DNA from: Promethearchaeota archaeon
GTDB lineage: Archaea > Asgardarchaeota > Hermodarchaeia > Hermodarchaeales > Hermodarchaeaceae
Assembly: GCA_048939625.1 (NCBI GenBank)
Contig: JBHLPH010000017.1
Location: 1 to 43,310 of the forward strand
Direction of reading: 5' to 3'
DNA length: 43,310 bases
The notes beneath the pieces are model-generated. The model searched no databases. It was not told the DNA's origin and saw only the letters and a program-made list of their open reading frames with translations. Positions 3,413-24,454 of the stretch are shown here, in pieces. Each line of letters starts with the position of its first letter. Positions within the stretch are counted from its first letter, which is position 1. A program made the translations under genes and the position numbers.

Positions 3413-3471
3413 AGTTAGCTTAGATTTTTTGCGCCTGAATATGATTTTATACGGAACTTTAAGTTGTACTG

Positions 3472-3540
3472 AGTCTGGGTGTATAAACCGGAAACACGGG
3501 TGTTGCACCAGGCTGAGGTGGACGACCACTTTTTTCTATT
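3472..3540 (+). repeat. Intergenic dispersed repeat, copy 2
   Basis: AGTCTGGGTGTATAAACCGGAAACACGGGTGTTGCACCAGGCTGAGGTGGACGACCACTTTTTTC; 38/39 nt identical to copy 4 over the core. Confidence 0.9.
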
Positions 3541-4011: not shown

Positions 4012-4137
4012 TGAGCTAAGCCCAACAAACCGATGAGACTAGCTAGCATAGGTCGCATTAGACGAGGGCTAAATTTCGAATTGAAATCATTTTCCCTGAG
4101 GTGCCTTTCTTGGGCACTTCGGAGTGGGCAATGGGAT

Positions 4138-4204
4138 CGGGTGTCGATACCGGAACCACGGGTGTTGTACCGATCCGTTGCGGTGGACGACCACTTTTTT
4201 CTAT
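4138..4204 (+). repeat. Intergenic dispersed repeat, copy 3
   Basis: CGGGTGTCGATACCGGAACCACGGGTGTTGTACCGATCCGTTGCGGTGGACGACCACTTTTTTC. Confidence 0.9.
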
Positions 4205-4248
4205 GCAAGGATTTTTGTCTGAGAAGTTTTTAATGATGAATAAGTAGT

Positions 4249-5790: not shown

Positions 5791-5882
5791 ATGCCTTAGG
5801 AGACTATACAGTACGGGGGCGGGTGTATGTTGATGGAAACACAGGTGTTGCACCAGGCTGAGGTGGACGACCATTTTCTATT
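5791..5882 (+). repeat. Intergenic dispersed repeat, copy 4
   Basis: CCTTAGGAGACT (shared with copy 1)...GGGTGTATGTTGATGGAAACACAGGTGTTGCACCAGGCTGAGGTGGACGACCATTTTC. Confidence 0.9.
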
Positions 5883-6118
5883 GTGAGTGTTTAATTGCAG
5901 ATTTGAATATTCTGTAATTATTGTGCGCGGCTTTGATTTCGGGGAGAGAGTTTAAATTCAGACCATATCTTGTGTACTGATATTGGTCAACTCTAGGGGA
6001 TTGCGGTCTTGTTTCGAACTAAACCGGGATTTGCGTTGCCGTGTCTAGGCTGTCATTCTTTACACAAATCTATGGTTGACCGAGTATTAGAGAGAAGAAT
6101 GAACATTTTAGGAATGAA

Positions 6119-7334: not shown

Positions 7335-7371
7335 ATAGCTAAAATAAGCACCGTGTGTTGATTTTCATATT

Positions 7372-7423
7372 GAAATATGTATGTGGGTTCCTTGGCGGGA
7401 GCGGACGACCACTTTTTCTTTTT
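7372..7423 (+). repeat. Intergenic dispersed repeat, copy 5 (degenerate 5' half)
   Basis: Exact GGACGACCACTTTTTCTTTTT at 7403-7423; lies between convergent genes. Confidence 0.8.
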
Positions 7424-7426
7424 CCA

Positions 7427-8074
7427 TCAATATCTTTGGTGGACATAGATTTTCACGTGCCAAAGCATGGTGTTTTGCTGGAGGTGTTGTTTGAAGCCGA
7501 GGCTGTGCAGCAGAGTATCAATGGCGTCGACTGGATGGATGAAGGTGCGAAAGGAGTGTCGACGCATCCAGAGACTGAAATTTTCCAATCCGATGGAAAG
7601 TCTGCTTAGCAAATTGGTCTGTGGAATGACGAGGCCATAGTGGGTGCGTGCCAGTGAGGCGGATTGCTTAACGAGGGTTTGCCAATCGTCGTAGCAGCAG
7701 ATGACTTTGTCGAGGGTGACAATATCGGTGGGAGAGATGGTGGTGACCAAGTCGATGAAGTCACCGTGATGATGGCTTATGCGATCTGCATGGCCTTGTC
7801 GTTCGCCTTCTTCTTGTGTAGCTGAAATATAGGCCATAGAGGCTTCGACATTTATGCTGTGCTGTAAACCTGATTTAAGTAATTCGTGTTGAATCACACC
7901 GATGCCGCCACCAATATCAAGTAAAGTTTTCCCTTTCACGCCTAGGGTTTTTAATGCGTTAACCAGAAGGCGCGTGGTGGGTGTCATGCCTTTCTCTCGA
8001 TATTGTTTGAGTTCGGTCTCCGCGACGGTCCGATCGAAGGTGGTTTCAAGGACTTGCCGTTGACAACAGCCCAT
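7427..8074 (-). CDS. Class I SAM-dependent methyltransferase (BchM-like family)
   Basis: LLDIGGGIG motif I; GDF; DIVTLDKVICCY. Confidence 0.85.
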   Translation of the reverse strand: MGCCQRQVLETTFDRTVAETELKQYREKGMTPTTRLLVNALKTLGVKGKTLLDIGGGIGVIQHELLKSGLQHSINVEASMAYISATQEEGERQGHADRISHHHGDFIDLVTTISPTDIVTLDKVICCYDDWQTLVKQSASLARTHYGLVIPQTNLLSRLSIGLENFSLWMRRHSFRTFIHPVDAIDTLLHSLGFKQHLQQNTMLWHVKIYVHQRY

Positions 8075-8978: not shown

Positions 8979-9055
8979 CGTAGAATCTGAATTCGTTGCA
9001 AAGATGAGGAATCTAAGTTGCATTACCGGCGACAAAGAGTACTGAATGAATGTTC

Positions 9056-9110
9056 TGAGAACACTGATGTGTTAGACAAGGTGTTGGGACAGACGGCCAC
9101 TTTTTCTTTG
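9056..9110 (+). repeat. Intergenic dispersed repeat, copy 6 (degenerate)
   Basis: GAGAACACTGATGTGTTAGACAAGGTGTTGGGACAGACGGCCACTTTTTCTTT. Confidence 0.7.
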
Positions 9111-9212
9111 AGAACGGTATCGGAGTGTTCTTTACCACTCACTGGTGGGGAATCATTGTCTGTAAAGGACAGGAAAATCTTTTTTGAAGAGCTCAATATG
9201 TGAGTAGGGTGG

Positions 9213-9665: not shown

Positions 9666-9731
9666 GACCCCCTTGTTGATTCATCTAATTGTCGTTTCAC
9701 TTGGGATAGGTCACTGCTAGTGTCATGACAA

Positions 9732-9780
9732 GAAATACGAGTGGTGTTCCAGGTGGGGTTGGACGACCATTTGCTTTTTA
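9732..9780 (+). repeat. Intergenic dispersed repeat, copy 7 (degenerate)
   Basis: GAAATACGAGTGGTGTTCCAGGTGGGGTTGGACGACCATTTG. Confidence 0.75.
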
Positions 9781-9836
9781 TTAAATTCTTGTTATTACTA
9801 TTCTCAGGAAAGGGAAGTCTAAAGAGAAAAGCGAAA

Positions 9837-10330: not shown

Positions 10331-11494
10331 TTATTGGCGTCGGCGCCAGAACCAGATGATGAGGATTATGATGATTACAATGACGATGATAGCGAAAATG
10401 ACAATGAACCAGGGAAATGGGAGTAGGTCGAAGAGGTGGAGTGCCCAGGTGTCGTCATAGAGGGTGGGGTCGGGTGAGGGGCTGCGGCCGCTGAAGAGGA
10501 TGCTGTGTTGGGTGTTGTGGTCGTAGGCCATGTAGGTGCGAACGCCGGGGGGTGGATGGGGAGTGGGGAAAAGTTGGGTCCAGGTGTTGGTGTTGTAGTT
10601 ATAGGTCCAGGTTTGGTCGCTGACATCGGTTTCGTCAAAATTGTGACAGCCTCCAAAGAGGACGACCCGATCCAGATTACTGTCATAGGATAACGCATGG
10701 CTGGCGATGGGGGTGGGAAATGCGGTGCGTTGGGTCCAGGTGTTGCTTGTGTAATCGTAGGCCCAGACGTCGGAGAGAATGGTCCCAGTGGAGCTGATTC
10801 CGCCCACGAGGATGACTTTGTCCGATTCTTGATCGTAGACCATGCGGTGGTCAAACCGTGATGTTGGTGATGCAGCGGGGCTGCGAAGCGTCCAGCTGTT
10901 AGTATCGTAATCATATTCCCACGTGGCAGCAGATGCTATGGCTCCATCACGTAGCCCACCGAACAGGATTTGGCGTTCCGCTTGCACAACATAGACCATA
11001 TCGGCCCAACATACACCTACTGGATGAGTGCTGGTGGTGCGATTGGTCCAAGTGTTCGCAGTATAGTCATAGGCCCAAGTTTGATGAAGCGTTTCGAGTG
11101 ATGAGCCACCTCCACTAAGCTGCCCACCAAAGAAGATGAGCTGGCGTGAATCCCAGTCGTAGCTGAGACAATGCCCGCCAGTGGGGGGTGGTGCAGTGCT
11201 GGGATTGCGATCGATCCAGATGTTTTGACTATAATCGTAGCCCCACGTGTCATTATAACGGTCAAAGTTTTCGTTGAACCCGCCATAGAGCATAACCAGT
11301 CCTGCGTTCAAATGATAGGTTAACGGAGAATGAATACGGGGCTCAGGAGCTGTTGTGGGTTCACGATTTTCCCAGATCCCGGAATCGATGGCCCTCACGG
11401 AACTCGGTGCGATGATCCAGACGCTTGAGATCATGAGAAAGGCGAACCCAAGGATAAACAGTCCTTTCCGTAAGTGATTTTTATGGTTCGAAAT
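10331..11494 (-). CDS. Kelch-repeat beta-propeller surface protein with C-terminal TM anchor
   Basis: Six repeats of P.PR..H...Y......LFGG....DTW.YD...N.W; C-terminal TM plus RRRQ. The ORF track starts at ATG 11434, but the signal peptide extends to an ATT at 11494 preceded by AGGAGG. Confidence 0.85.
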   Translation of the reverse strand: MSNHKNHLRKGLFILGFAFLMISSVWIIAPSSVRAIDSGIWENREPTTAPEPRIHSPLTYHLNAGLVMLYGGFNENFDRYNDTWGYDYSQNIWIDRNPSTAPPPTGGHCLSYDWDSRQLIFFGGQLSGGGSSLETLHQTWAYDYTANTWTNRTTSTHPVGVCWADMVYVVQAERQILFGGLRDGAIASAATWEYDYDTNSWTLRSPAASPTSRFDHRMVYDQESDKVILVGGISSTGTILSDVWAYDYTSNTWTQRTAFPTPIASHALSYDSNLDRVVLFGGCHNFDETDVSDQTWTYNYNTNTWTQLFPTPHPPPGVRTYMAYDHNTQHSILFSGRSPSPDPTLYDDTWALHLFDLLPFPWFIVIFAIIVIVIIIILIIWFWRRRQ

Positions 11495-11633: not shown

Positions 11634-11710
11634 ATTGACGCCTTTGAAGGAAATCGAATTTGCCGTCTTGCTTTAGATAGAAGAGGAGCATGATAATGGA
11701 GACGATGATA
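11632..11710 (-). pseudogene. 3' remnant of a paralog of 27488..28312
   Basis: IMLLFYLKQDGKFDFLQRRQ* versus VMVLSYLKHEGKLNFPSIRQ* (10/20 identical); nucleotide similarity visible from the stop codon inward. Confidence 0.6.
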
Positions 11711-11822
11711 TGCCAGACGAAGTTCTTTGGTGAACACATTGGTTGAATGATCACTATCTGAATGCTAGGTCTTTTTACCCTAGATGCCTTATGTGTGATT
11801 GTTAGAAAAGGAGGCACTGGAT

Positions 11823-13604
11823 ACGTCAACGGCTGTGCTCATGAAGTTATTGGAGACAGCGCCGTGGCGCTATGACCGGGGTATTGATTTTCTCACGCTG
11901 GGTGTTGATTCGAAGCTGAAGAGGCGTATTGCGGATGAGTTCATCTTTCCCTCGGATGATGTTCTTGAACTAGGGAGTGGCACGGGAACCTTAGCGTTGC
12001 TGTGTGCTCAGAAAGGGGCGCAGGTACTGGGCATTGATGTGTCACCTTTAATGATTGCATTAGCTCAGGCCAAAGCCGCGAAGGTTCAATGGTCAGATCG
12101 AGTACAGTTTCGGGAAATGGACCTGACGGAAATTGACCAGTTGTCTGATTCCTCTTTTGATGTGGTGGTTGCCACCTTGGTGTTTAGTGAGTTGTCGGAG
12201 GTGGAGCAGTTTTATGCGCTTCGTGAAGCGTGGCGGCTGCTTCGACCGGGGGGGCGACTAATCATTATGGATGAAGTTCGACCTCAATCGTTACGTAAGA
12301 TGCTTCCGTATTACACGTTACGTGTACCTCTCACAATGTTCACCTTTCTGTTGAGCCAGACAACGACCCATCGGGTGAAGAATCTCGAAACAAAGCTCGA
12401 AATAGCAGGATTTCGGATTGCCAGACAGGAGCAGCATTTACTGGATTCGATTGCGTTACTTGTCGCCATCAAACAATCCCAACGACCCATTAGAGTAGCA
12501 GGTCCTCGTCTATTTCCAACGGTTCATGTTAGGTCACGAATCATGTCTGTGGCTGAAACTATTTTTCGCTGGGTAGGTGTCCCGCTCGCACCAGGGTATA
12601 TCGCTGTGGGACAGCCCTCCACAGAAAGTCCGGTTCTAGTCACTTGCAACTATGACTTGACGGTGCGCCGAGTTCTGAAAACACTTCAACACGCACAGGT
12701 TGATTGTTTTGTACTGGTGGCTCCAACGCGGGGAATTAACGTGTGGTGTGCCGCTTGCGGTGGAGATTTTACGGCGCACTCAGTTATCGCGGCAATTAAG
12801 CTCAGTGGCATCAACAGCTTAGTACAGCACCGGCGGTTGATTCTACCTCAACTTGCCGCTTCAGGTGTTGACCCTGATGTGATTGAGGAGGAGACAGGAT
12901 GGTCAGCTCAGTTTGGACCGGTAAAAGCTAAAGATATACCCGCCTACTTGCAGAAGGGTTCACAGAAGACAGAGGCAATGCGAACGGTTCGATTTCCGGT
13001 TTCAAGTCGCTTAGAAATGGCAAGTCTGTATGCGATTATGATTTCCCTCCTTATGATTCCCCTCAGCTTACTCTTTGCGTCCCTCAGACTTGTCACGACC
13101 CTTGGGCTCGTTTGGCTGCTTATTTGCGGTGCCTATCTGCTATCCTCATATCTCCCGAGTAGATCTGGATTCGTGAAAATGCTGGTGTATGGAATAGGTT
13201 CCATTTTTGTCATCTTACTTGTAGCCTTTTATACCACAGGGAGCCCGCTAGGATTGCCATGGGAACTTCTTGTAGCGATTCTTGTTTTACTCGTCTTGAG
13301 TGTTGATTTCAACGGGATGACCCCAATCTTACCCAGTGACCTCGGTCGTCTATTTTATAGCCGAGGCTACTCAGAAATGCCCTTCTTCACAGGAAAATAT
13401 CCACTTCAACCCTATGGACGTATCACGCAGGATATAGAGCTTTGTATTGGATGTGGGATGTGTATACAAGTCTGTCCAATGAATGTCTACCAGTTAGATG
13501 ATACAAGACGCAAGGCGGATCTAATCCGCCCCCACCACTGTGTCAACTGCAATGCTTGTGTTCATCGATGCCCCACACATTGCCTTCACATTATCAAATC
13601 TTAA
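11823..13604 (+). CDS. Fusion: SAM methyltransferase (CpaM/UbiE-like) + HgcA/CdhE-like corrinoid domain + about 4 TM + 2[4Fe-4S] ferredoxin (HgcAB-like fusion)
   Basis: VLELGSGTG; SPVLVTCNY; GINVWCAACGG; LILPQLAA; FGPVKAKDIPAYL; CIGCGMCIQVCP and CVNCNACVHRCP. Start uncertain (TTG 11799, ACG 11823 after AGGAGG, ATG 11841). Confidence 0.9.
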   Translation, partial: TSTAVLMKLLETAPWRYDRGIDFLTLGVDSKLKRRIADEFIFPSDDVLELGSGTGTLALLCAQKGAQVLGIDVSPLMIALAQAKAAKVQWSDRVQFREMDLTEIDQLSDSSFDVVVATLVFSELSEVEQFYALREAWRLLRPGGRLIIMDEVRPQSLRKMLPYYTLRVPLTMFTFLLSQTTTHRVKNLETKLEIAGFRIARQEQHLLDSIALLVAIKQSQRPIRVAGPRLFPTVHVRSRIMSVAETIFRWVGVPLAPGYIAVGQPSTESPVLVTCNYDLTVRRVLKTLQHAQVDCFVLVAPTRGINVWCAACGGDFTAHSVIAAIKLSGINSLVQHRRLILPQLAASGVDPDVIEEETGWSAQFGPVKAKDIPAYLQKGSQKTEAMRTVRFPVSSRLEMASLYAIMISLLMIPLSLLFASLRLVTTLGLVWLLICGAYLLSSYLPSRSGFVKMLVYGIGSIFVILLVAFYTTGSPLGLPWELLVAILVLLVLSVDFNGMTPILPSDLGRLFYSRGYSEMPFFTGKYPLQPYGRITQDIELCIGCGMCIQVCPMNVYQLDDTRRKADLIRPHHCVNCNACVHRCPTHCLHIIKS

Positions 13605-13667
13605 GCGTATAATGACGAAACCACAGGTGTTGAAGACAATCCCTGGAATATAGACAGGCATTTTTTC
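13605..13667 (+). repeat. Intergenic dispersed repeat, copy 10 (degenerate)
   Basis: GCGTATAATGACGAAACCACAGGTGTTGAAGAC...TAGACAGGCATTTTTTC; lies between convergent genes. Confidence 0.65.
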
Positions 13668-13684
13668 GATTTTGGGGTGAGAGA

Positions 13685-14665
13685 TTAATCGTATAGATGA
13701 CAGGCGACCCAGTGTTTCTTCTTTACTTCACGGAGCTCGGGTTCTTCCACCGCGCATCGTTCGAAGGCTTTAGGACATCGAGGATGGAAGTTGCATCCAG
13801 AGGGAGGATTAATGGGACTGGGAATCTCCCCTTTAGGAATCGCTTCTCCCGTCGTCGCTGTGGGATCTGGCACAGGTATTGCAGCCATCAGACTAACCGC
13901 ATACGGATGAAGGGAATCTGTATAGATTTGGTCTTTATCAGCGATTTCTACTATCTTTCCCAGGTACATAATGGCAATCCGGTCACAGATATGCCTTGCA
14001 GTGGCAAGATCATGCGAGATGAAAAGATAAGTCAGACTATATTCATCCTGTAAATCTTTCATGAGTTCCAGAATCTGCGCCCGAACGGACACATCTACCA
14101 TAGCAACTGGTTCATCAGTGACAACAAATTCAGGTTCGAGAATGATAGCTCTTCCAAACACAACTCTCTGCCTTTGACCACCACTGAGTTGATGAGGCAA
14201 CCTATCATAAAAAGAGCTAGCGGGAGAAAGGCCAACTCGTTCTAGAATTTTCATTGTTCGCTGCTTCTGTTCACTCCTTGTACCAATCCCTTGGAGCCTC
14301 AGTGCATCAGCAATAGCATTTCCAATGCTCAATCGCGGATTTAGTGATGAAGAAGGGTCTTGAAAAGTGAACTGAAGCCTCCGCTTTAGTAATCGTAATT
14401 TTTTCCCATTAATTTTGGCTATGTCTTGGCCATCAAAGAGAATTTGCCCCGCGGTAAGGTCGATCAATCGTACGATAAGTCGTCCCATAGTCGTCTTCCC
14501 TGAACCACTCTCTCCTGCAAGGCCAAACACTTCTTTTTCTTCTATTTCAAAGGAAACGTCATCTACCGCTTTGACAAATTCTTTTTGCCTGGTAAAAAGG
14601 GTATCAAGGTATCCCTTCTGGACCGGAAAATACTTCACGGCGTTCTTCACTTCAATTAACGGCAT
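13685..14665 (-). CDS. dppF: Peptide ABC transporter ATP-binding protein
   Basis: GESGSGKT, LSGGQRQR, DEP, HPY, GCNFHPRC...VACH. Confidence 0.95.
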   Translation of the reverse strand: MPLIEVKNAVKYFPVQKGYLDTLFTRQKEFVKAVDDVSFEIEEKEVFGLAGESGSGKTTMGRLIVRLIDLTAGQILFDGQDIAKINGKKLRLLKRRLQFTFQDPSSSLNPRLSIGNAIADALRLQGIGTRSEQKQRTMKILERVGLSPASSFYDRLPHQLSGGQRQRVVFGRAIILEPEFVVTDEPVAMVDVSVRAQILELMKDLQDEYSLTYLFISHDLATARHICDRIAIMYLGKIVEIADKDQIYTDSLHPYAVSLMAAIPVPDPTATTGEAIPKGEIPSPINPPSGCNFHPRCPKAFERCAVEEPELREVKKKHWVACHLYD

Positions 14666-14667
14666 AG

Positions 14668-15678
14668 TTACGATCCCTCATAGAGATAACATGCGACGCG
14701 CCCACCCGATGCACTCTTTATCAGTGGGGGGGGCTCCGTTGCACAAATTTCCATAGCATGCGGACATCGTGGTCTAAACATACAACCTGGAAAAGGTTCG
14801 GTGAGGCTGGGTGGTGATCCAGGAATCCAGGAGAGTCTTCTGTCCGGTGTTCTTACATCAGGAACTGATTGAAGTAAGGCTTGCGTATAAGGGTGCTGGG
14901 GGGACTCGAACAATGCCTCAGTCGGAGCTACTTCCATGATTCTACCAGTGTACATGATTGCGATACTATCAGCTGTTTGAGCCAACACTCCTAGATTGTG
15001 CGTAATTAGTATCATAGTAAGATTGAACTTATCTTTGAGATTTGAGATTAGTTTTAGAATCTGCGCCTCCACAATCACATCGAGAGAGGTGGTCGGCTCG
15101 TCGGCAATCAACAGCTGTGGTGTCAAAGCAAGTGCTAAACCGATCATCACGCGTTGGCGCATTCCTCCACTGAACTGGTGGGGGTAGTCTAATACACGTT
15201 CGGGAAGAATGTCTAATGCTTCAAGGAGGTCTTTTGCTCTCACTTGTGCATCTTCTTTGGAGGTGTCTGGTTCGTGTGCTTGTATGATCTCAACAAAGTG
15301 TTGTCCAATTCTAGCCATTGGATTTAGGGAGGTCATAGGGTCTTGAAAGATATAAGCAAGTTTGTTGCCCCGAAGTGCCCTCATTTGGTCAGCACCAAGC
15401 TGTAGGAGGTTTATTTGTCCCTTCTCGACAACGCCATTCTCATACGGTACATCCTCATCAAGGTTGAGAAGAATATCGCCTTCAAGTATGCGACCAGGAT
15501 GAGGAACAAGACTGATAATTGATCGACCTAAAGTTGATTTTCCACAACCAGATTCTCCTGCAAGACCAAGGGTTTTATTCTCTTCCAGTGTTATAGAAAC
15601 ATTATCCACTGCCCGGGCGGTGCCTAACCGCGTTTTGTATTCAACGGTTAAGTTGTTGATTTCAAGAAGGGTAGGCAT
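14668..15678 (-). CDS. dppD: Peptide ABC transporter ATP-binding protein
   Basis: GESGCGKS, FQDPMTSLNP, FSGGMRQR, ADEPTT, HPYT. Confidence 0.95.
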   Translation of the reverse strand: MPTLLEINNLTVEYKTRLGTARAVDNVSITLEENKTLGLAGESGCGKSTLGRSIISLVPHPGRILEGDILLNLDEDVPYENGVVEKGQINLLQLGADQMRALRGNKLAYIFQDPMTSLNPMARIGQHFVEIIQAHEPDTSKEDAQVRAKDLLEALDILPERVLDYPHQFSGGMRQRVMIGLALALTPQLLIADEPTTSLDVIVEAQILKLISNLKDKFNLTMILITHNLGVLAQTADSIAIMYTGRIMEVAPTEALFESPQHPYTQALLQSVPDVRTPDRRLSWIPGSPPSLTEPFPGCMFRPRCPHAMEICATEPPPLIKSASGGRVACYLYEGS

Positions 15679-15684
15679 TTCTAT

Positions 15685-16953
15685 CTAGTCCTTAAGCATC
15701 GGTGTTAGTATTTCATTAAGTCCTTCACCAACCAGCGTAAATCCTAGTGCAAGAAGGACGATCATAATTCCGGGGAATGTGATAACCCACCACGCTCCAG
15801 TTATTAGTTGATGCCAGCCAAATGTTAAATCCCATCCCCAATCAGCAACATCGATTGGTAGGCCTAATCCAACAAATGTTAGTCCTGCAGCAGTGAGAAC
15901 GGCATCTGCGAAGTTAATCGACATCACAACAACGATTGAGGGTAAAGCATTAGGGAGAACATATCTAAACATCGTGTCTCGATCTCTGGCACCCATGACC
16001 TTTGCCGCCTCGACATAAGGGAGTTCTTTGATTGTAAGAACTTGGCTCCTGAGCACCCTGAAGTATGAAGGAATATAAACAACGGCAATTGCCAAAGCCA
16101 TGTTAATAACACCTGGACCAAGCATAGCAGCAATAGCGATTGCCAGAATTAGACCAGGGAATGCAAAGATAGCATCCATGAAAAGTGATAGTACTCGATC
16201 AAGTATTCCTCCCCTAAACGAAGCAAGAAGCCCCAATGGAACACCGACAAAGAAACAAATGATCACCGAAATAAAGGCCACCTGTAACATGATCGCGCCA
16301 CCGGCAATGGTTCTACTTAGTAAGTCCTGCCCCAAAGACGTGGTTCCCAAGGGGAAGCCGGGGGACGGGGGATACAGAATTGGTCCAACATTGATGGTGA
16401 ACGGATCATAAGGCACAATCCAGTAGGAAATAACGGTCATATAGATGATAGCAAGTACCATCAAGAACCCAGTGATGGTCAGAAATCCAGGGGAACCCCT
16501 TTCTTTCAACCACGAATATCTGAAGTAGAGAAAGAGTAGAATAATTCCTATTACAACACCACCCGTTACAAAGACTACCCAAAGATCAAACCAAGCAAAG
16601 GGAAGAATGAAGAAGCTTACAGGAATAGTGATGACTCCAAGTAGGCACGTAACACCAACTAGAAACAGAGTTCCGATTCTTGGTGAGAAGGTTCCCTGGC
16701 GAATTAAAAGAGTCCGGAATAAACCCACGACTAACATAGACACTCCGAATAGTATAGTTCCCACAACAACTGGAATTCCCAAACCACTATTAGACCTTGC
16801 AGCTAATATTATCAGACTGCTAACTAAAGCTATTGTACCCCCCAGTATTACCGCTAGCACAATCCACCAGAGTTTTGAACGATTTCGGAAAGGGTCTTGA
16901 ACAAGTCTCAGGTAGATAAATACACCACTAATCGTTATGTCTGGTCCCATCAT
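15685..16953 (-). CDS. dppC: Peptide ABC transporter permease with an N-terminal extension of about 4 TM helices
   Basis: LGTTSLGQDLLSR; YVEAAKVMGA EAA motif; LTFVGLG. Confidence 0.9.
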   Translation of the reverse strand: MMGPDITISGVFIYLRLVQDPFRNRSKLWWIVLAVILGGTIALVSSLIILAARSNSGLGIPVVVGTILFGVSMLVVGLFRTLLIRQGTFSPRIGTLFLVGVTCLLGVITIPVSFFILPFAWFDLWVVFVTGGVVIGIILLFLYFRYSWLKERGSPGFLTITGFLMVLAIIYMTVISYWIVPYDPFTINVGPILYPPSPGFPLGTTSLGQDLLSRTIAGGAIMLQVAFISVIICFFVGVPLGLLASFRGGILDRVLSLFMDAIFAFPGLILAIAIAAMLGPGVINMALAIAVVYIPSYFRVLRSQVLTIKELPYVEAAKVMGARDRDTMFRYVLPNALPSIVVVMSINFADAVLTAAGLTFVGLGLPIDVADWGWDLTFGWHQLITGAWWVITFPGIMIVLLALGFTLVGEGLNEILTPMLKD

Positions 16954-16962
16954 TTTCCATCC

Positions 16963-17973
16963 TTAGAGTCTTATTCGGGGATCAAGAAACGCGTATAGAA
17001 GGTCGATTACCAAAGTAACAACCGCCACCAAGATTGCATAAAACACGACAGTGCCTTGAATTGCTGTGTAATCTCGATGCGCAATTCGATCAACTAAATA
17101 GGTTCCTAGACCTGGCCAACTGAATGTGGTCTCAGTCAGAACAGCCCCAGCAAGAAGAACAGCAAATTGGAGGCCAATCATTGTCAAGATTGGGAGGAAC
17201 GCATTCCTGAGTGCATAGCGATAAGTGACTCTGGAGTCTGAAAGACCTCTGGCTTCTGCTGCCACGACGAAGTCTTTTCGAAGTGTCTCAATCATGTTGG
17301 TTCGGGTCAAACGAATAAAGATCCCACAAAGCACGAGACCCAGAGTGACCGTAGGAAGTATAAGATAACGAACAGATACCATAAACGCCCATAAATTGCC
17401 TGTTAATAGGCTATCAATTGTGTAGAGACCCGTTATACGTGCTGGTGGGATATAATGTGGATCAAATCTAGTCCCCGAAGGTAATACTCTCAGCCATACT
17501 GCAAAGATAAGCTGAAAGATCATACCCAAGAAAAATACTGGAATAGCGTAGGTTATAATACCAAAAAGTCTGATTGAATGATCGGTAGGAGAATCATATC
17601 TTTTCGAGGAAAAAACTCCAAGGGCAATTCCGAGTAAGACGGCAAATAGCATGGAATAAATGGCTAACTCGAATGTTGCAGGAAACCGTGTTATAAGATG
17701 ATCTACAACAGGTGAAAAGTCCTGCATCGATAATCCGAAATTCCCAATAAGAAGCCCCCCAAGATAATTGATATACTGAATTGGAATGGGCTGATCTAAT
17801 CCTAAACGCCTCCGAAATTCAGCAAGGGCAGCAGGATCTACTCGCCGCTCAAAATGCAATAGTGCCGGGTCACCAGGCATGACTCGAATGACGAAGAACA
17901 CGAATGTAAGAAGTAACAAAACCATTGGGATGGCCATTAGGACACGAGTGACTATATACGATTTCAGTGACAC
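16963..17973 (-). CDS. dppB: Peptide ABC transporter permease
   Basis: MPGDPA, GLDQP..QY, PATFEL, AAEARGL, LRNA, ETTFSWPGLG, DPRIR. Confidence 0.95.
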   Translation of the reverse strand: MSLKSYIVTRVLMAIPMVLLLLTFVFFVIRVMPGDPALLHFERRVDPAALAEFRRRLGLDQPIPIQYINYLGGLLIGNFGLSMQDFSPVVDHLITRFPATFELAIYSMLFAVLLGIALGVFSSKRYDSPTDHSIRLFGIITYAIPVFFLGMIFQLIFAVWLRVLPSGTRFDPHYIPPARITGLYTIDSLLTGNLWAFMVSVRYLILPTVTLGLVLCGIFIRLTRTNMIETLRKDFVVAAEARGLSDSRVTYRYALRNAFLPILTMIGLQFAVLLAGAVLTETTFSWPGLGTYLVDRIAHRDYTAIQGTVVFYAILVAVVTLVIDLLYAFLDPRIRL

Positions 17974-18053
17974 TTGATTCCCACCTTGTTACCAAAGAAA
18001 ATGTGGGTGTCATCAGTTCCAATCAAGTCCTAGTTTAGGTTTTTGGTAGCTAC

Positions 18054-19775
18054 CTAATTGTCGAACTTGCCTGGGTATCTGATGACACTTACTTCATTGG
18101 TTTGTAATGTCAAAAATGGACCTGTAGTCGCTGGTGCGCCCCAATATAAGAGCCAATGTCGGAAGTTAATTGTGATATCCAAGATGATACCATGGATGGT
18201 GGTTTTACTCACTGCATACGCACCACCCTGATACAACGGAATCGCTGAGCATTCTTGGGCTTGAAGATCTTGCAGAGCATAATATGAAGTCTGTCTTCCT
18301 GAATCACTTGTATTACTTCGACCCCAAACCCATAGGTTGTATTGCTGGACACCGCCAGCAGGATAGGTTGCATTGTATCCCATGTTGAGCCATTCAGCAA
18401 AAGGTAAGAACGCATAGTTATCGGGATCAATGTAGTCTGGATACCATCCGTATACATAGACTGGCATTGTACCAGCACTTCGTGCAGATCTATAACTCGC
18501 CCATTCTAGACCATTGAGGTTAACGGTCATTACACCGCTTGCCTCAAGATCACTCTTGTAAACGGCAGCTTGTTCTGCGCTTTGTGGATAGTGGCCAGAA
18601 CTCTCGTAATACATTTCGATTACTAGTTTGTTGGATGAATTGTATCCAAAGAGGTCAAACACAGTTTGGGTGTAAGTGTAGTTCGCTTCTCCATGTATCT
18701 CAAAGCTTGGTTTGTGGTAGGCCATTCCATCTGGGATGATGGTATACAGAGGTTGTGCTGTGCCAAGGAAAACCGTATTAACCAAGTTGGTTCGGTTCAA
18801 CGCAGCTGCTATCCCTCGCCGGATAAGCGTTTCGTTGAAAGGATAAATTTCCTGTTGGAAGCACATATACTGTATAAATGGACCTGCCGCCTCCCAAACT
18901 CGTACATTAGGATTGGTGCGAAAAGCGTTAATCTGAGTTGCACTGAGCTGTCGGTACGCTACATCAATCTCACCAGATGTCATCGCAGTTGCAAGGGCGG
19001 TGTCAGTTTCGTAGAATTTAATGATAAAAGTGTCTGTCATTGGTATCCCATTGGCAGCATCCCAGTAGTTGGGATTTCTAACTAGTACAATCTCTTCATC
19101 GGTTCCACCAGTACGACTCCAGCTTTGTAGAAGGTATGGGCCAAGACCCACTGCATAACTTGCGCGGGCATTGCCTGCTGTGTAATTCACCAATTCATCC
19201 ATGGGTGCATAATTTGGATGGACTATGAAACATCCTTGTGCAGCCATTGTTTGTAAGAATGGAGCCCAGGGGATGGTCAAGTAGAACTTAACCGTATATT
19301 CGCCGGTTATAGTCACATTATCAATGATGTCAGCTAAGCCGATGCCACGTTGGAATCCTTCAGGATGGTAGATTCCGTCGCCTGTAAGGTTGCAGCACCT
19401 ATCAAAAGTGTATTTGACAGTGGTTGAGTTAAATGGAGTTCCATCTGCGAAGATGAGGCCTTCCTTCAGAGTGAAGTCATATATCGTTCCAGCGCCTGAC
19501 ACTGTCCAACTCGATGCCAATGAAGGTATGATATCGTCTGGTGCGGCTGTCGACCCGGGGTCAATATCGACTAACCCAGAGCCGAGAGCACCAATCATCG
19601 ACCAACCGAAGTAATCGTATGCTCTAGCAGGATCAAGGACTGTCTCTATTGAGTCAGTAGTTCCCATGACGATTAGGTTGGAAATTGGTGGGGGCCTCAT
19701 GAAGAGGTAGACACCAACGCCACCTACGACAATGATAACTACTAACGCGATCGCAATCGCGTAGCTTCTTTTCAA
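18054..19775 (-). CDS. dppA: Peptide ABC transporter substrate-binding protein (family 5)
   Basis: LDPA, SLASSW, FADGTPFN..VKY, GLGPY, RNPNYW. Likely start TTG 19775 after GGAGGT; N-terminal TM anchor. Confidence 0.9.
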   Translation of the reverse strand: MKRSYAIAIALVVIIVVGGVGVYLFMRPPPISNLIVMGTTDSIETVLDPARAYDYFGWSMIGALGSGLVDIDPGSTAAPDDIIPSLASSWTVSGAGTIYDFTLKEGLIFADGTPFNSTTVKYTFDRCCNLTGDGIYHPEGFQRGIGLADIIDNVTITGEYTVKFYLTIPWAPFLQTMAAQGCFIVHPNYAPMDELVNYTAGNARASYAVGLGPYLLQSWSRTGGTDEEIVLVRNPNYWDAANGIPMTDTFIIKFYETDTALATAMTSGEIDVAYRQLSATQINAFRTNPNVRVWEAAGPFIQYMCFQQEIYPFNETLIRRGIAAALNRTNLVNTVFLGTAQPLYTIIPDGMAYHKPSFEIHGEANYTYTQTVFDLFGYNSSNKLVIEMYYESSGHYPQSAEQAAVYKSDLEASGVMTVNLNGLEWASYRSARSAGTMPVYVYGWYPDYIDPDNYAFLPFAEWLNMGYNATYPAGGVQQYNLWVWGRSNTSDSGRQTSYYALQDLQAQECSAIPLYQGGAYAVSKTTIHGIILDITINFRHWLLYWGAPATTGPFLTLQTNEVSVIRYPGKFDN

Positions 19776-19909
19776 ATCGAAGTTACCTCCGTTAGGAGAT
19801 GGTTTGATCTCTGACAGAAGATGCAAAACCATATCCAAAAGCTTCCTATGTCTCTTGTTTATATTTAAATCGTTCTTAATCCGCATTCCTTCTTGTTGGA
19901 GTGGGTTAT

Positions 19910-19956
19910 CCTGAAACACCGGTTTTAGCCCAGTGTTTAGGTAGACGACCACTTTG
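19910..19956 (+). repeat. Intergenic dispersed repeat, copy 11 (degenerate)
   Basis: CCTGAAACACCGGTTTTAGCCCAGTGTTTAGGTAGACGACCACTTT; lies between divergent genes. Confidence 0.75.
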
Positions 19957-20273: not shown

Positions 20274-20903
20274 TTGCCACCGTTTTTGAAAGGGAAGAGA
20301 GTGAAACCGGACCAGGTCCCGTATTTGGTTGTGTTCTTTGCCAGAGAGTATGTGTCAAAAATAAAAGCTTTTTTAGAGAGGGATTATCCAACGCGTCAAG
20401 AAGGTGTAAAGGGGTTCACGACCATGATGAGGGTAATTTATCCTCAGGTCTATCAGTTGCAACAGCAGTTACCAGAATCTCTGGTAGAAGAGATGATTTT
20501 AGGGCTTCCTGCATACCTCAGTCTCCATGAATGGGACAAAGAGTCCAACAAATGGAAAAATGAGAAGAAAAAAGCGCTAAACGCCTTTCTAGAAGGAAAA
20601 GACACTCCTGCAGATGAATATGGTAATCCTGACTTTCTTAGTGGTATGTTTGTCTCAATTATGATGTTATTGAATTCAACATATAAGGGACTAATCTCGC
20701 CTAGGGGTCTTTCCAGCAACTTCGACGACACAGCATACACCGACTCCTATTTTCACTCAGTCTATCATCAGTTTGAATATGAGATTTTTACCAAAGGTCT
20801 CCTCAAAACCGTTAGCGATCTTAGAGGAATCATGCCGTTAATCTATGAGATTGAGCGAAAACTCGCACTGTATCCACCCTCGGGGTTACTGGAAGAGATG
20901 TAG
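20274..20903 (+). CDS. Hypothetical soluble protein
   Basis: 209-aa ORF; GAGGTG RBS before TTG; no motif recognised. Confidence 0.75.
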   Translation: MPPFLKGKRVKPDQVPYLVVFFAREYVSKIKAFLERDYPTRQEGVKGFTTMMRVIYPQVYQLQQQLPESLVEEMILGLPAYLSLHEWDKESNKWKNEKKKALNAFLEGKDTPADEYGNPDFLSGMFVSIMMLLNSTYKGLISPRGLSSNFDDTAYTDSYFHSVYHQFEYEIFTKGLLKTVSDLRGIMPLIYEIERKLALYPPSGLLEEM

Positions 20904-21949: not shown

Positions 21950-22438
21950 ATGAAACACGAAACGATAGAGCCGGCATCCTTATCACGCGCCTTGAAATCC
22001 CAACACGCAATATCCAACATCAAAACAGAGGGCAACCTCCTGTCATTTTTTACAAATCCCGAAACGTATGTGGAGCTTGCCTCTAATCTCTACGAACGTG
22101 GCTTTTCGCGCTGTCTCACTGTAGCAGCTGTCGATTGGATTGAGCAAAACGAGTTCGAGGCGTATTATATCGTTCACCATCTTGAAGCGAACCTATACGT
22201 GAAAGTGACCACACGTATTCCTCGAAATAAACCGAGAATCCAGAGCTTGGCTGCAATCTGGCAGTCAGCAGCGATGCATGAACGCGAAATGTGGGAGCTT
22301 TTCGGAATCAACTATGTTGGAAATCCGATGTTGAAACCGCTCTTCCTCGAAGACTGGAAAGGGAAACCACCCTTGCGAAAAGATTTCAATTGGCGTGAGT
22401 ACGTCAACAAGGAATACTATCAGGTGAGAGGGAAATAG
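21950..22438 (+). CDS. nuoC: NuoC/MbsK-like subunit (complex I 30-kDa family)
   Basis: AVDW...FEAYY; HEREMWELFGINYVGNP...PPLRKDF. Confidence 0.9.
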   Translation: MKHETIEPASLSRALKSQHAISNIKTEGNLLSFFTNPETYVELASNLYERGFSRCLTVAAVDWIEQNEFEAYYIVHHLEANLYVKVTTRIPRNKPRIQSLAAIWQSAAMHEREMWELFGINYVGNPMLKPLFLEDWKGKPPLRKDFNWREYVNKEYYQVRGK

Positions 22439-22441
22439 CCA

Positions 22442-24454
22442 ATGTCACGACTTCTGAAAGCCGTAAAAAGTGTACTAGGACTCGCAATCTCAAAACCCAT
22501 GACCTTCTCGTTTCCTCCCGACATGCCACTGACTGACTTATACCGGGGTCGGCAACTCTACAAGCCTGATTTGTGTAAAGGCTGTAAAATCTGCTCGATT
22601 GTGTGTCCTAATAATGCCATTGAGATGGTCGACCGTGAAAAGAGTGGAGAAAACAAAACCGGACTTCAACCGCAAATCGATTTCCGGAAATGCTGTTTCT
22701 GTGGGCTTTGTGTGGACAATTGCCCCACCGGCGCCCTTACCTTCACGAATTTTCCCATCCTGCTGACCATGAAACCAGAAACCCTCAACTATACACCCGA
22801 AATGCTTGCTGTCGCCCCTGTCCTCGAACATCCAGAGCCCCCGAAGATCCAAAATACCGTCGCCTGGGCCCGCTCACGGAGTATTTGGATCGTCAATTAC
22901 ATGACCGGGTGTTGTTTCATTGAAGCGGTACCATGGGTGGCGAGCTCCTTCGATATGGAGCGGTTCGGACTCTTAGCTGTAGGCTCCCCCCGACATGCCG
23001 ATGCGCTGATTGTTGGTGGATATGTCACCCCCAAGACCCTCAAACGCATTATCCGCATCTATTCCATGATGCCCCAACCCAAATGGGTCATCGCTCTAGG
23101 CAATTGCCCCATGACTGGCGGCACTTACTGGGACAGCTACAATACCATCAAAGACATCAGCAAATACATCCCCGTCGACATCTGGATCGCTGGTTGTCCC
23201 CCGCGACCTGAGCCCATTGGTGTTGCTGTCGTGCATGCCATTCAAGCCATTCAAGGTGGATACACGGGTAAGGAAGAAAAAATAAACACCGACGCGGGGC
23301 AAATGGAGGTGGCCCCCTACCCCCTCAAAGGGGCTGATGCCAGCAAAGCCCAGTTTGATGTCGTGTTCGGATCCCAACATCCTGCCTCCGGAAACTTCAA
23401 TATGGACCTCCAACTGGATGGCGAAATCGTCGTTGATGCAACTCCATACCCCGGCTATTTGCATCGTGGCTTCGAGAAACTCATGGAATATCGTACCTGG
23501 CTCCAAAACATCATGCTGGTCCCCCGTATTTGTGTCCTTGACGGCGCCTCCTATGAGCTCGCCTATACTGGTGTAACCGAGAAACTGGCGGGCATCAAGG
23601 TTCCGATTCGGGGTCAGTACTTACGGGTCATTCAAGCCGAACTCTCACGCATCCAAAGCCATCAAATGAACCTAGGGTTTGGTGGAGCCGCCTCAGGCTT
23701 TGATACCATCGAACGCTTAATCTGGGGTGACCGTGATCAAGTCCTTCTCCTTCTCGAAGAACTCACCGGCGCACGAATCTACCACATCTTCAACACCATC
23801 GGAGGAGTCCGCCGCGACCTCCAACCTGATTTCCAAGAAAAAGCTGAACACCTCATTAGTTATCTCCGAAAACGCCTTCACATCTACGATGATCTCTTAT
23901 TCCATAACAAAACTTTCATCGATCGGACTCAAAATCTTGCACCCCTCTCCCAGACCACCGCGATCGAAAACGATGTTACCGGTCCCAATCTCCGGGCAAC
24001 CGGCGTTGAGTTCGATGTTCGAACCGCCACCCCTTATGAAGCCTATAAGGACATTGGGGTAAAGGTTATTACCGGAACACCTGGTGACGCCTACACTCGA
24101 TTTCTCTGCCGGCGACAAGAAATTGAAGAAAGCCTCAATATCATCGAACGTGCATTAGACAAGTTACCCAGCGGCCCTGTCTGTGAAACCCAAACCCCAG
24201 AAGGCAAAAAGATTACTTGGCGACTCAAAATCCCACCCGGCGACGCCTTTTATTGCACAGAAGGGGGTCGTGGAGAACTGTGTTTCCACGCCGTCAGCAA
24301 TGGTGAAAACACCCCGTACCGCGTGAAGGTACGAGGCCCCACGTTCGGAACCATCCTTGTCATGTTTCCCAAATTACTCCAAGGCGTGAAAATCGCGGAT
24401 GTTCCAGTCATCTACTGGAGCCTCGACCAATGCCCTGCCGATCACGACCGATAA
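22442..24454 (+). CDS. NuoI-NuoB-NuoD triple fusion, MBS/Mbx (sulfane-sulfur reductase)-type catalytic module
   Basis: Two CxxCxxCxxxCP; GCCFIE...GNC...GCPPRPE; GYLHRGFEK; RICVLDG; C-terminal DQCPADHDR (two Cys kept, as in MbsL). Confidence 0.9.
   Translation: MSRLLKAVKSVLGLAISKPMTFSFPPDMPLTDLYRGRQLYKPDLCKGCKICSIVCPNNAIEMVDREKSGENKTGLQPQIDFRKCCFCGLCVDNCPTGALTFTNFPILLTMKPETLNYTPEMLAVAPVLEHPEPPKIQNTVAWARSRSIWIVNYMTGCCFIEAVPWVASSFDMERFGLLAVGSPRHADALIVGGYVTPKTLKRIIRIYSMMPQPKWVIALGNCPMTGGTYWDSYNTIKDISKYIPVDIWIAGCPPRPEPIGVAVVHAIQAIQGGYTGKEEKINTDAGQMEVAPYPLKGADASKAQFDVVFGSQHPASGNFNMDLQLDGEIVVDATPYPGYLHRGFEKLMEYRTWLQNIMLVPRICVLDGASYELAYTGVTEKLAGIKVPIRGQYLRVIQAELSRIQSHQMNLGFGGAASGFDTIERLIWGDRDQVLLLLEELTGARIYHIFNTIGGVRRDLQPDFQEKAEHLISYLRKRLHIYDDLLFHNKTFIDRTQNLAPLSQTTAIENDVTGPNLRATGVEFDVRTATPYEAYKDIGVKVITGTPGDAYTRFLCRRQEIEESLNIIERALDKLPSGPVCETQTPEGKKITWRLKIPPGDAFYCTEGGRGELCFHAVSNGENTPYRVKVRGPTFGTILVMFPKLLQGVKIADVPVIYWSLDQCPADHDR

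Follow-up and report, generated by a model that had tools for sequence, protein, structure and literature searches.

The subject of this study is a 43,310-nt stretch of DNA (hereafter the window) of the Promethearchaeota archaeon assembly GCA_048939625.1 (contig JBHLPH010000017.1, positions 1 to 43,310 of the forward strand), a draft metagenome-assembled genome that is 87.6% complete with 6.3% contamination. On its plus strand a single uninterrupted open reading frame (ORF), 11799..13604 with the stop codon included, joins an S-adenosylmethionine (SAM)-dependent methyltransferase, a corrinoid-binding domain, a membrane domain and a ferredoxin domain. An earlier note, written from the sequence alone, had described such a fusion and had named model scoring, a phylogeny of the corrinoid domain, a count of triple fusions and structure prediction as checks on it. 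The start at 11823 given there is an in-frame ACG codon and no start codon. The frame codes for 601 aa from TTG 11799, and the identical database protein (P0002, 587 aa) begins at ATG 11841, which is residue 15 of the 601-aa frame. Because the frames of two same-genus orthologues open just 10 codons upstream of the Met at 11841, ATG 11841 (587 aa) or GTG 11835 is the likely start codon, rather than TTG 11799. Residue numbers below refer to the 601-aa frame.

The full chain was modelled with AlphaFold2 (AF2) from an alignment of 116 homologues, which also served for the conservation values given below. The model was confident, with a predicted local distance difference test score (pLDDT) of 89.8 and a predicted template modelling score (pTM) of 0.88, and contained four transmembrane (TM) helices; residues 1-8 had pLDDT below 50. 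A Foldseek search with the whole model retrieved no structures other than class I methyltransferases of a generic kind and 9a0b, the deposited HgcAB model. The domain order of the earlier note (class I SAM methyltransferase, corrinoid domain, four TM helices and two CxxCxxCxxxC motifs) was confirmed by Pfam, by the motifs and by AF2. Likewise, its description of a SAM-binding methyltransferase, an HgcA-type corrinoid domain with Cys-on cobalt coordination, a membrane anchor and a 2x[4Fe-4S] ferredoxin on one chain was supported.

The N-terminal part (aa 12-224, 11832..12470) is a CpaM-type class I SAM-dependent methyltransferase domain. It scored 259.1 bits with the CpaM model NF043040 (cut-off 180) in the protein search and 262 bits in the genome search, and Pfam Methyltransf_11 and Methyltransf_25 matched aa 55-156. 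The SAM-binding motif I, VLELGSGTG, is located at 11961..11987, and residues G59, G61, G63 and D80 were at least 90% conserved. Like other members of CpaM, a family annotated as a hypothetical equivalog, the domain has intact SAM motifs, and its context agrees with this membership, as it is fused here to an HgcA-type corrinoid protein instead of being free-standing. According to PDB and Foldseek searches the CpaM fold is akin to natural-product, quinone and lipid methyltransferases; the ArsM model NF008823 gave 61.8 bits, below its cut-off of 263. The only Cys of the domain, C69, was present in 8 of 34 triple fusions. A variable, genus-specific linker (aa 225-254, 12471..12560) follows, in which residues 231-240 had a mean pLDDT of 64; the junction alignment places the CpaM stop and the HgcAB-like start of relatives in this segment.

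The second domain (aa 255-395, 12561..12983) is an HgcA/CFeSP-type corrinoid-binding domain, assigned by Pfam CdhD matches (aa 265-383), the HgcAB-like fusion model NF043039, matches to the gamma subunits of corrinoid iron-sulfur proteins (CFeSP) in the PDB (aa 263-385) and Foldseek. Its cap helix, NVWCAACGG, lies at 12738..12764, exactly where the earlier note had put it, and includes Cys317 (codon 12747-12749), the predicted lower axial ligand of cobalt. G312, N314, W316 and C317 were invariant in the alignment, and the GINVWC core is conserved. Nine Cys residues were conserved at 80% or more among the 34 triple fusions, namely C317 and the eight cluster ligands of the ferredoxin domain. That the GK of HgcA is lost and an extra Cys gained, as noted earlier, is true of this protein, but the extra Cys (C320) is no feature of the family: it occurs in 17 of the 34 triple fusions and is replaced by Gly in 77 of 80 double fusions.

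Four TM helices (aa 401-507, 12999..13319) were delineated from AF2 secondary structure, hydropathy and conservation; AF2 placed them at aa 401-426, 428-451, 457-480 and 487-507. R404 and G506 were invariant, and L405-M407 as well as P450, P453, G457 and K460 in the P450-K460 loop were at least 90% conserved. Since the number of TM helices is even, the methyltransferase, corrinoid and ferredoxin domains are placed on the same side of the membrane, and this side was taken as the cytoplasm because SAM is needed there. Given four helices, the model puts the conserved membrane-domain positions all on the face that bears the soluble domains.

The chain ends in an HgcB-like 2x[4Fe-4S] ferredoxin domain (aa 540-598, 13416..13592), recognized by Pfam Fer4 dicluster families (aa 543-597) and by two CxxCxxCxxxC cluster motifs (13443-13475 and 13539-13571). 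All eight cluster Cys are conserved across homologues. C595 was found in 8 of the 34 triple fusions. The chain runs on for only 10 residues beyond the last cluster Cys, with no Cys pair among them, and across the family the tails beyond this Cys comprise 7-63 residues without a conserved Cys pair.

The affiliation of the protein was then judged from family models and phylogeny. The HgcAB-like fusion model NF043039 was matched with 372.7 bits (cut-off 285) over aa 249-596, covering model positions 2-349 of 350, and with 374.5 bits in the genome search; the chain also unites the features of this family: a cap-helix Cys as cobalt ligand, a TM domain and a ferredoxin with two clusters. Scores remained below the cut-offs for HgcA (NF040863; 168.3 vs 275 bits), for HgcB (NF040864; 46 vs 99 bits, aligned only at model positions 12-63 of 93) and for the gamma subunit of the acetyl-CoA decarbonylase/synthase (ACDS)/CFeSP type (NF003195; 92 vs 306 bits). 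Control proteins with the true HgcA cap-helix motif reached 373-459 bits on the HgcA model. The high-stringency HgcA motif, N[V/I]WC[A/S][A/G/S]GK (Capo et al.), is not matched by NVWCAACGG. In the scoring named in the earlier note, CpaM and HgcAB-like were thus above and HgcA and HgcB below their cut-offs.

A quick maximum likelihood tree of the corrinoid-plus-TM region, rooted with the CdhE of this genome, recovered true HgcA as a clade with a support of 100 in the Shimodaira-Hasegawa-like approximate likelihood ratio test (SH-aLRT). The protein of the window was placed apart from it, in a 99-supported Asgard subclade inside the HgcAB-like clade (94 support). This agrees with the two-clade picture of Lin et al., in which Asgard members fall into the fused clade; these authors trimmed the first 327 columns of their alignment, and the methyltransferase domain at the N-terminus of such sequences may have lain in this part. 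Two proteins of the data set, P0203 (445 aa) and P0227 (415 aa), join HgcB to a true HgcA (NVWCAAGK; HgcA model, 300-334 bits) on a single chain and were placed inside the true-HgcA clade; on the HgcB model P0203 reached 108.8 bits, above the cut-off of 99, and P0227 95.7 bits, just below it. Therefore, being fused is in itself no mark of the non-methylating sister family.

Models, motif, tail and tree all support the view of the earlier note that this is no canonical mercury methylase. Purified HgcAB takes its methyl group from SAM, and HgcB residue C73 and the pair C94/C95 matter for mercury methylation (PMC11588087, 2024), whereas a C-terminal Cys tail of the HgcB type is absent here and tail Cys are not conserved in the family. 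Two cultured carriers of fused HgcAB made no methylmercury. On these grounds the protein belongs to the "fused HgcAB" sister clade and is probably not a mercury methylase. A metal or metalloid as methyl acceptor, which the earlier note had considered, found no support, as Cys is conserved only as cobalt ligand and at the eight cluster positions and the HgcB tail is missing.

The fusion proved to be genuine and recurrent. An intact single frame with all motifs kept was present in six species of the genus (71-86% identity), and the next relatives, at about 50% identity or less, contained the same two coding regions in frame but split by a stop near residue 220; in one of these split relatives the CpaM stop is followed immediately by the ATG of the HgcAB-like gene. 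Two further clades, one of Helarchaeota type and one deltaproteobacterial, also contained single-chain forms, and many bacteria have the split form, which Pyrococcus furiosus carries as well. In the HgcAB-like tree the fused forms occupied three separate clades, with three changes between the fused and split states, at least two of them forced by well-supported branches. Together with the intact frames in six species, these independent fused clades speak against an assembly artefact, the concern that the earlier note had raised.

Adjacency of the two genes is equally consistent. In 20 of 20 Asgard genomes with a stand-alone HgcAB-like match whose flanks were inspected, CpaM was located directly upstream on the same strand, and in Asgard archaea at large, as well as in many bacteria, the CpaM and HgcAB-like genes stand next to each other in this order. 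Relatives of the HgcAB-like half numbered 163 at E<=1e-30, counted as representatives of 50%-identity clusters. The best 150 of these 163 comprised 10 triple fusions, 11 CpaM-HgcA-like double fusions, 46 stand-alone HgcAB-like proteins and 13 proteins with an extra N-terminal membrane domain, the remainder being fragments; this provides the triple-fusion count that the earlier note had listed. Matches were obtained in 207 of 400 Asgard genomes (E<=1e-20). An ESM Atlas cluster of the same make-up has 140 members, mostly from Promethearchaeota, and is mentioned as a lead only.

In P0190, P0196, P0214, P0223 and similar HgcAB-like proteins the extra membrane domain, about 150 aa at the N-terminus, takes the place of the CpaM fusion; they form a clade of their own with 100% support.

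The architecture is not unusual: both parts are in NCBIfam (CpaM and HgcAB-like), single-chain forms exist in several archaeal and bacterial lineages, and the NCBI name "HgcAB-like fusion protein" is already attached to Promethearchaeota proteins of 595-601 aa. The single-chain form is a recurrent, genuine variant of a catalogued two-gene module and not a new kind of system.

Compared with known systems, the protein shares most with the HgcAB-like fusion proteins (NF043039, 2023), whose single chain joins a corrinoid domain with a Cys cap helix to a TM domain and, at the C-terminus, a ferredoxin with two clusters, and which fall into the same clade; unlike in most of these, where CpaM is encoded by a separate upstream gene, here it is part of the chain. 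HgcA and HgcB have homologous corrinoid, TM and ferredoxin parts and the same Cys-on cobalt coordination, but they form the sister clade, have GK instead of CGG in the cap helix, five reported TM helices instead of four and the HgcB Cys tail, and lack a dedicated SAM methyltransferase. The gamma subunit of CFeSP/ACDS (AcsC/CdhE) has the corrinoid-binding fold in common with the protein, which however contains neither a TIM barrel nor an N-terminal cluster domain, is membrane-bound and has a Cys ligand. As a comparison of the way of working only, the reactivation module of methionine synthase and the cobalamin-dependent radical SAM methylases can be named, which use SAM to methylate cob(I)alamin and have a reductant available; their folds are unrelated, and the protein has no radical-SAM CxxxCxxC motif or Pfam match.

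The fused gene, which is monocistronic, diverges from a Kelch-repeat gene (10331-11434, minus strand) and converges with an Opp-type ATP-binding cassette (ABC) transporter operon (13685-19952, minus strand). When the neighbourhoods of 15 loci were compared, no neighbour was conserved outside the genus; genomes of the genus repeatedly have genes for a 209-aa protein and a 215-aa methyltransferase close by, in varying order. In the window the latter is encoded at 7427-8074 (minus strand) and is a class I methyltransferase with weak BchM/UbiG-like matches; in two same-genus genomes it recurs close to the fused gene, with neither distance nor order constant.

The Opp-type peptide transporter operon consists of five genes and stands between the fused gene and the gene for the 209-aa protein (20274-20903). 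In L029, the locus of a same-genus genome with 86% identity, the 209-aa gene is located directly downstream of the fused gene; the position of the operon in the window reflects insertion or rearrangement at a boundary marked by the repeat. Further downstream, at 22442-24454 (plus strand), a 670-aa single chain combines a Fer4 dicluster with NuoB-like (Oxidored_q6) and NuoD-like (Complex1_49kDa) parts and is preceded by a NuoC-like gene (21950-22438). This protein is predicted to be a fused group-4 hydrogenase or complex-I-like module.

A direct repeat of about 75 nt follows nearly every plus-strand ORF in the first 20 kb of the window, with plus-strand copies at approximately 60-140, 3465-3540, 4127-4205, 5812-5885, 7345-7423, 9033-9111, 9706-9781 and 19888-19955. 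It forms two hairpins, and its core GGTGGACGACCAC is followed by a T-run; the genome has no more than 7 copies of the strict core, of which this contig carries 6. Rfam contained no match for the repeat. A reading as integron attC sites was not adopted, as no integrase was present among the ORFs tested and no RYYYAAC/GTTRRRY ends were seen by eye.

Strict repeat searches had suggested that the fused gene is not bounded by repeats, a result that was revised after comparison with the orthologous loci. By alignment with the intact copies upstream of the L029, L031 and L032 orthologues, which are located 55-70 nt before the start in these three same-genus genomes, a decayed copy was recognized upstream of the fused gene (about 11690..11775, plus strand). 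A second decayed copy follows the stop (about 13606..13678, plus strand), in which decay has affected the terminal hairpin but left the first half conserved; L029 and L031 have an intact repeat 40-130 nt downstream of the stop. The "own repeat-bounded block" of the earlier note thus holds in a weak form only, as intact copies flank the orthologues but both copies in the window are decayed. DNA blocks shared between species of the genus, the one with the fused gene included, end at these repeats and differ in order from species to species, which gives the region the look of a cassette array.

Taking the domains together, we regard the protein as the single-chain form of the CpaM plus HgcAB-like module and propose that it would pass a methyl group from SAM to Co(I) and from methyl-Co(III) to an acceptor at the membrane face, with the ferredoxin reducing cobalt; we assign this reading a probability of about 60%. 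The ferredoxin domain would accept low-potential electrons and reduce Co(II) to Co(I), the CpaM domain would bind SAM and methylate Co(I), yielding Cys-ligated methyl-Co(III) and S-adenosylhomocysteine, and the methyl group would then be passed to the acceptor at the cytoplasmic membrane face, where the conserved loop residues are found. By way of thiolate-ligated cobalt, the methyl group of SAM could arrive at an electrophilic acceptor as a carbanion or radical equivalent, which is beyond the reach of a plain SAM methyltransferase. The genome contained one CpaM gene and one HgcAB-like gene above the cut-offs, both of them this chain. It also encodes a true CdhE elsewhere (545 bits) and, because of this genuine CdhE, can be taken to handle corrinoids.

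Several points weigh against this proposal. Literature searches found no paper on CpaM or on a methyltransferase fusion to an HgcAB-like protein; the biochemistry of HgcAB-like proteins consists of the negative mercury methylation results from the two cultured hosts, and none was found for CpaM. True HgcAB uses SAM without a methyltransferase partner (PMC11588087), and therefore the CpaM step is not strictly required for transfer from SAM to cobalt. Searches of the genome recovered neither CobS nor CbiB, which at 87.6% completeness is no evidence of absence; either the cofactor is imported or these genes are unassembled. We know of no shown case of a class I SAM methyltransferase acting on a protein-bound corrinoid. 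Beyond the CpaM/HgcAB-like pair itself, no conserved neighbour among the 15 compared loci pointed to an acceptor.

The main rival explanation is that CpaM and the ferredoxin serve for repair only, as in MetH, with SAM and an electron re-methylating cobalt that has slipped to Co(II) while something else, such as a methylated pterin or a methylated substrate, acts as the routine donor. In MetH, a SAM/flavodoxin reactivation domain performs reductive reactivation, and the combination of a SAM binder, a reductant and a corrinoid follows the same domain logic; permanent pairing with CpaM would suit a housekeeping partner as well as a catalytic one. However, a pterin-binding or MtrH/MeTr-type methyltransferase was neither fused nor adjacent nor conserved nearby, CpaM is a full class I methyltransferase and not of the MetH-type activation fold, and purified HgcAB turns over on SAM as donor (PMC11588087). 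We therefore consider a pure repair role unlikely.

Somewhat less probable still is that the two halves perform separate chemistry in one pathway, CpaM methylating a small molecule directly with SAM and the corrinoid/ferredoxin half carrying out reductive chemistry, such as dehalogenation or demethylation, on this substrate or a related one. The resemblance of the CpaM fold to natural-product, quinone and lipid methyltransferases would fit this explanation, as would a 2026 preprint (10.64898/2026.04.26.720869) according to which heterologously expressed HgcAB dechlorinates a halomethane. On the other hand, CpaM has only about 215 aa; an unvarying gene order, stop and start codons that lie back to back and the repeated fusion point to physical cooperation of the halves, and the whole-chain pTM of 0.88 suggests a fixed arrangement of the domains.

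That the protein is a divergent yet functional mercury methylase of the HgcAB kind is highly improbable. The fold, the Cys-on cap helix, the membrane domain and the ferredoxin are shared with HgcAB, whose methyl donor is SAM, but the HgcA (168 vs 275 bits) and HgcB (46 vs 99 bits) scores, the failed cap-helix motif, the missing tail Cys, the position outside the true-HgcA clade and the negative results with both cultured carriers of fused HgcAB argue otherwise. A fusion produced by misassembly or a frameshift error, or a gene in decay, for which the draft metagenomic source with 6.3% contamination could be cited, is practically negligible in view of the uninterrupted frame with all motifs in six species at 71-86% identity and the independent fused clades elsewhere.

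Within the proposed transfer from SAM via cobalt to a membrane-face acceptor, a more far-reaching version is conceivable, although we hold it to be doubtful: the module could represent a new class of B12-dependent, non-radical-SAM methyltransferase that reverses the polarity of the SAM methyl group at Cys-ligated cobalt and delivers it to an acceptor that is electrophilic and associated with the membrane, for example a lipid, quinone or metal ion. If this were true, an older CpaM plus HgcAB-like chemistry would have given rise to HgcAB-type mercury methylation as a side branch.

Judged by its sequence, the protein is a genuine, ordinary member of a known family, and the value of the finding is limited by the existing entry of the module in the NCBI catalogue. 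The native function of HgcAB and of its widespread "fused" sister family is nevertheless a long-standing question in mercury biogeochemistry. The single-chain version offers a convenient one-gene construct for studying SAM-to-cobalt transfer and for screening acceptors, and such genes should not be counted as mercury methylators in metagenomes. The constant pairing and repeated fusion with a SAM methyltransferase provide independent genomic evidence for SAM as the methyl source of the family, in agreement with the 2024 biochemistry of HgcAB (PMC11588087).

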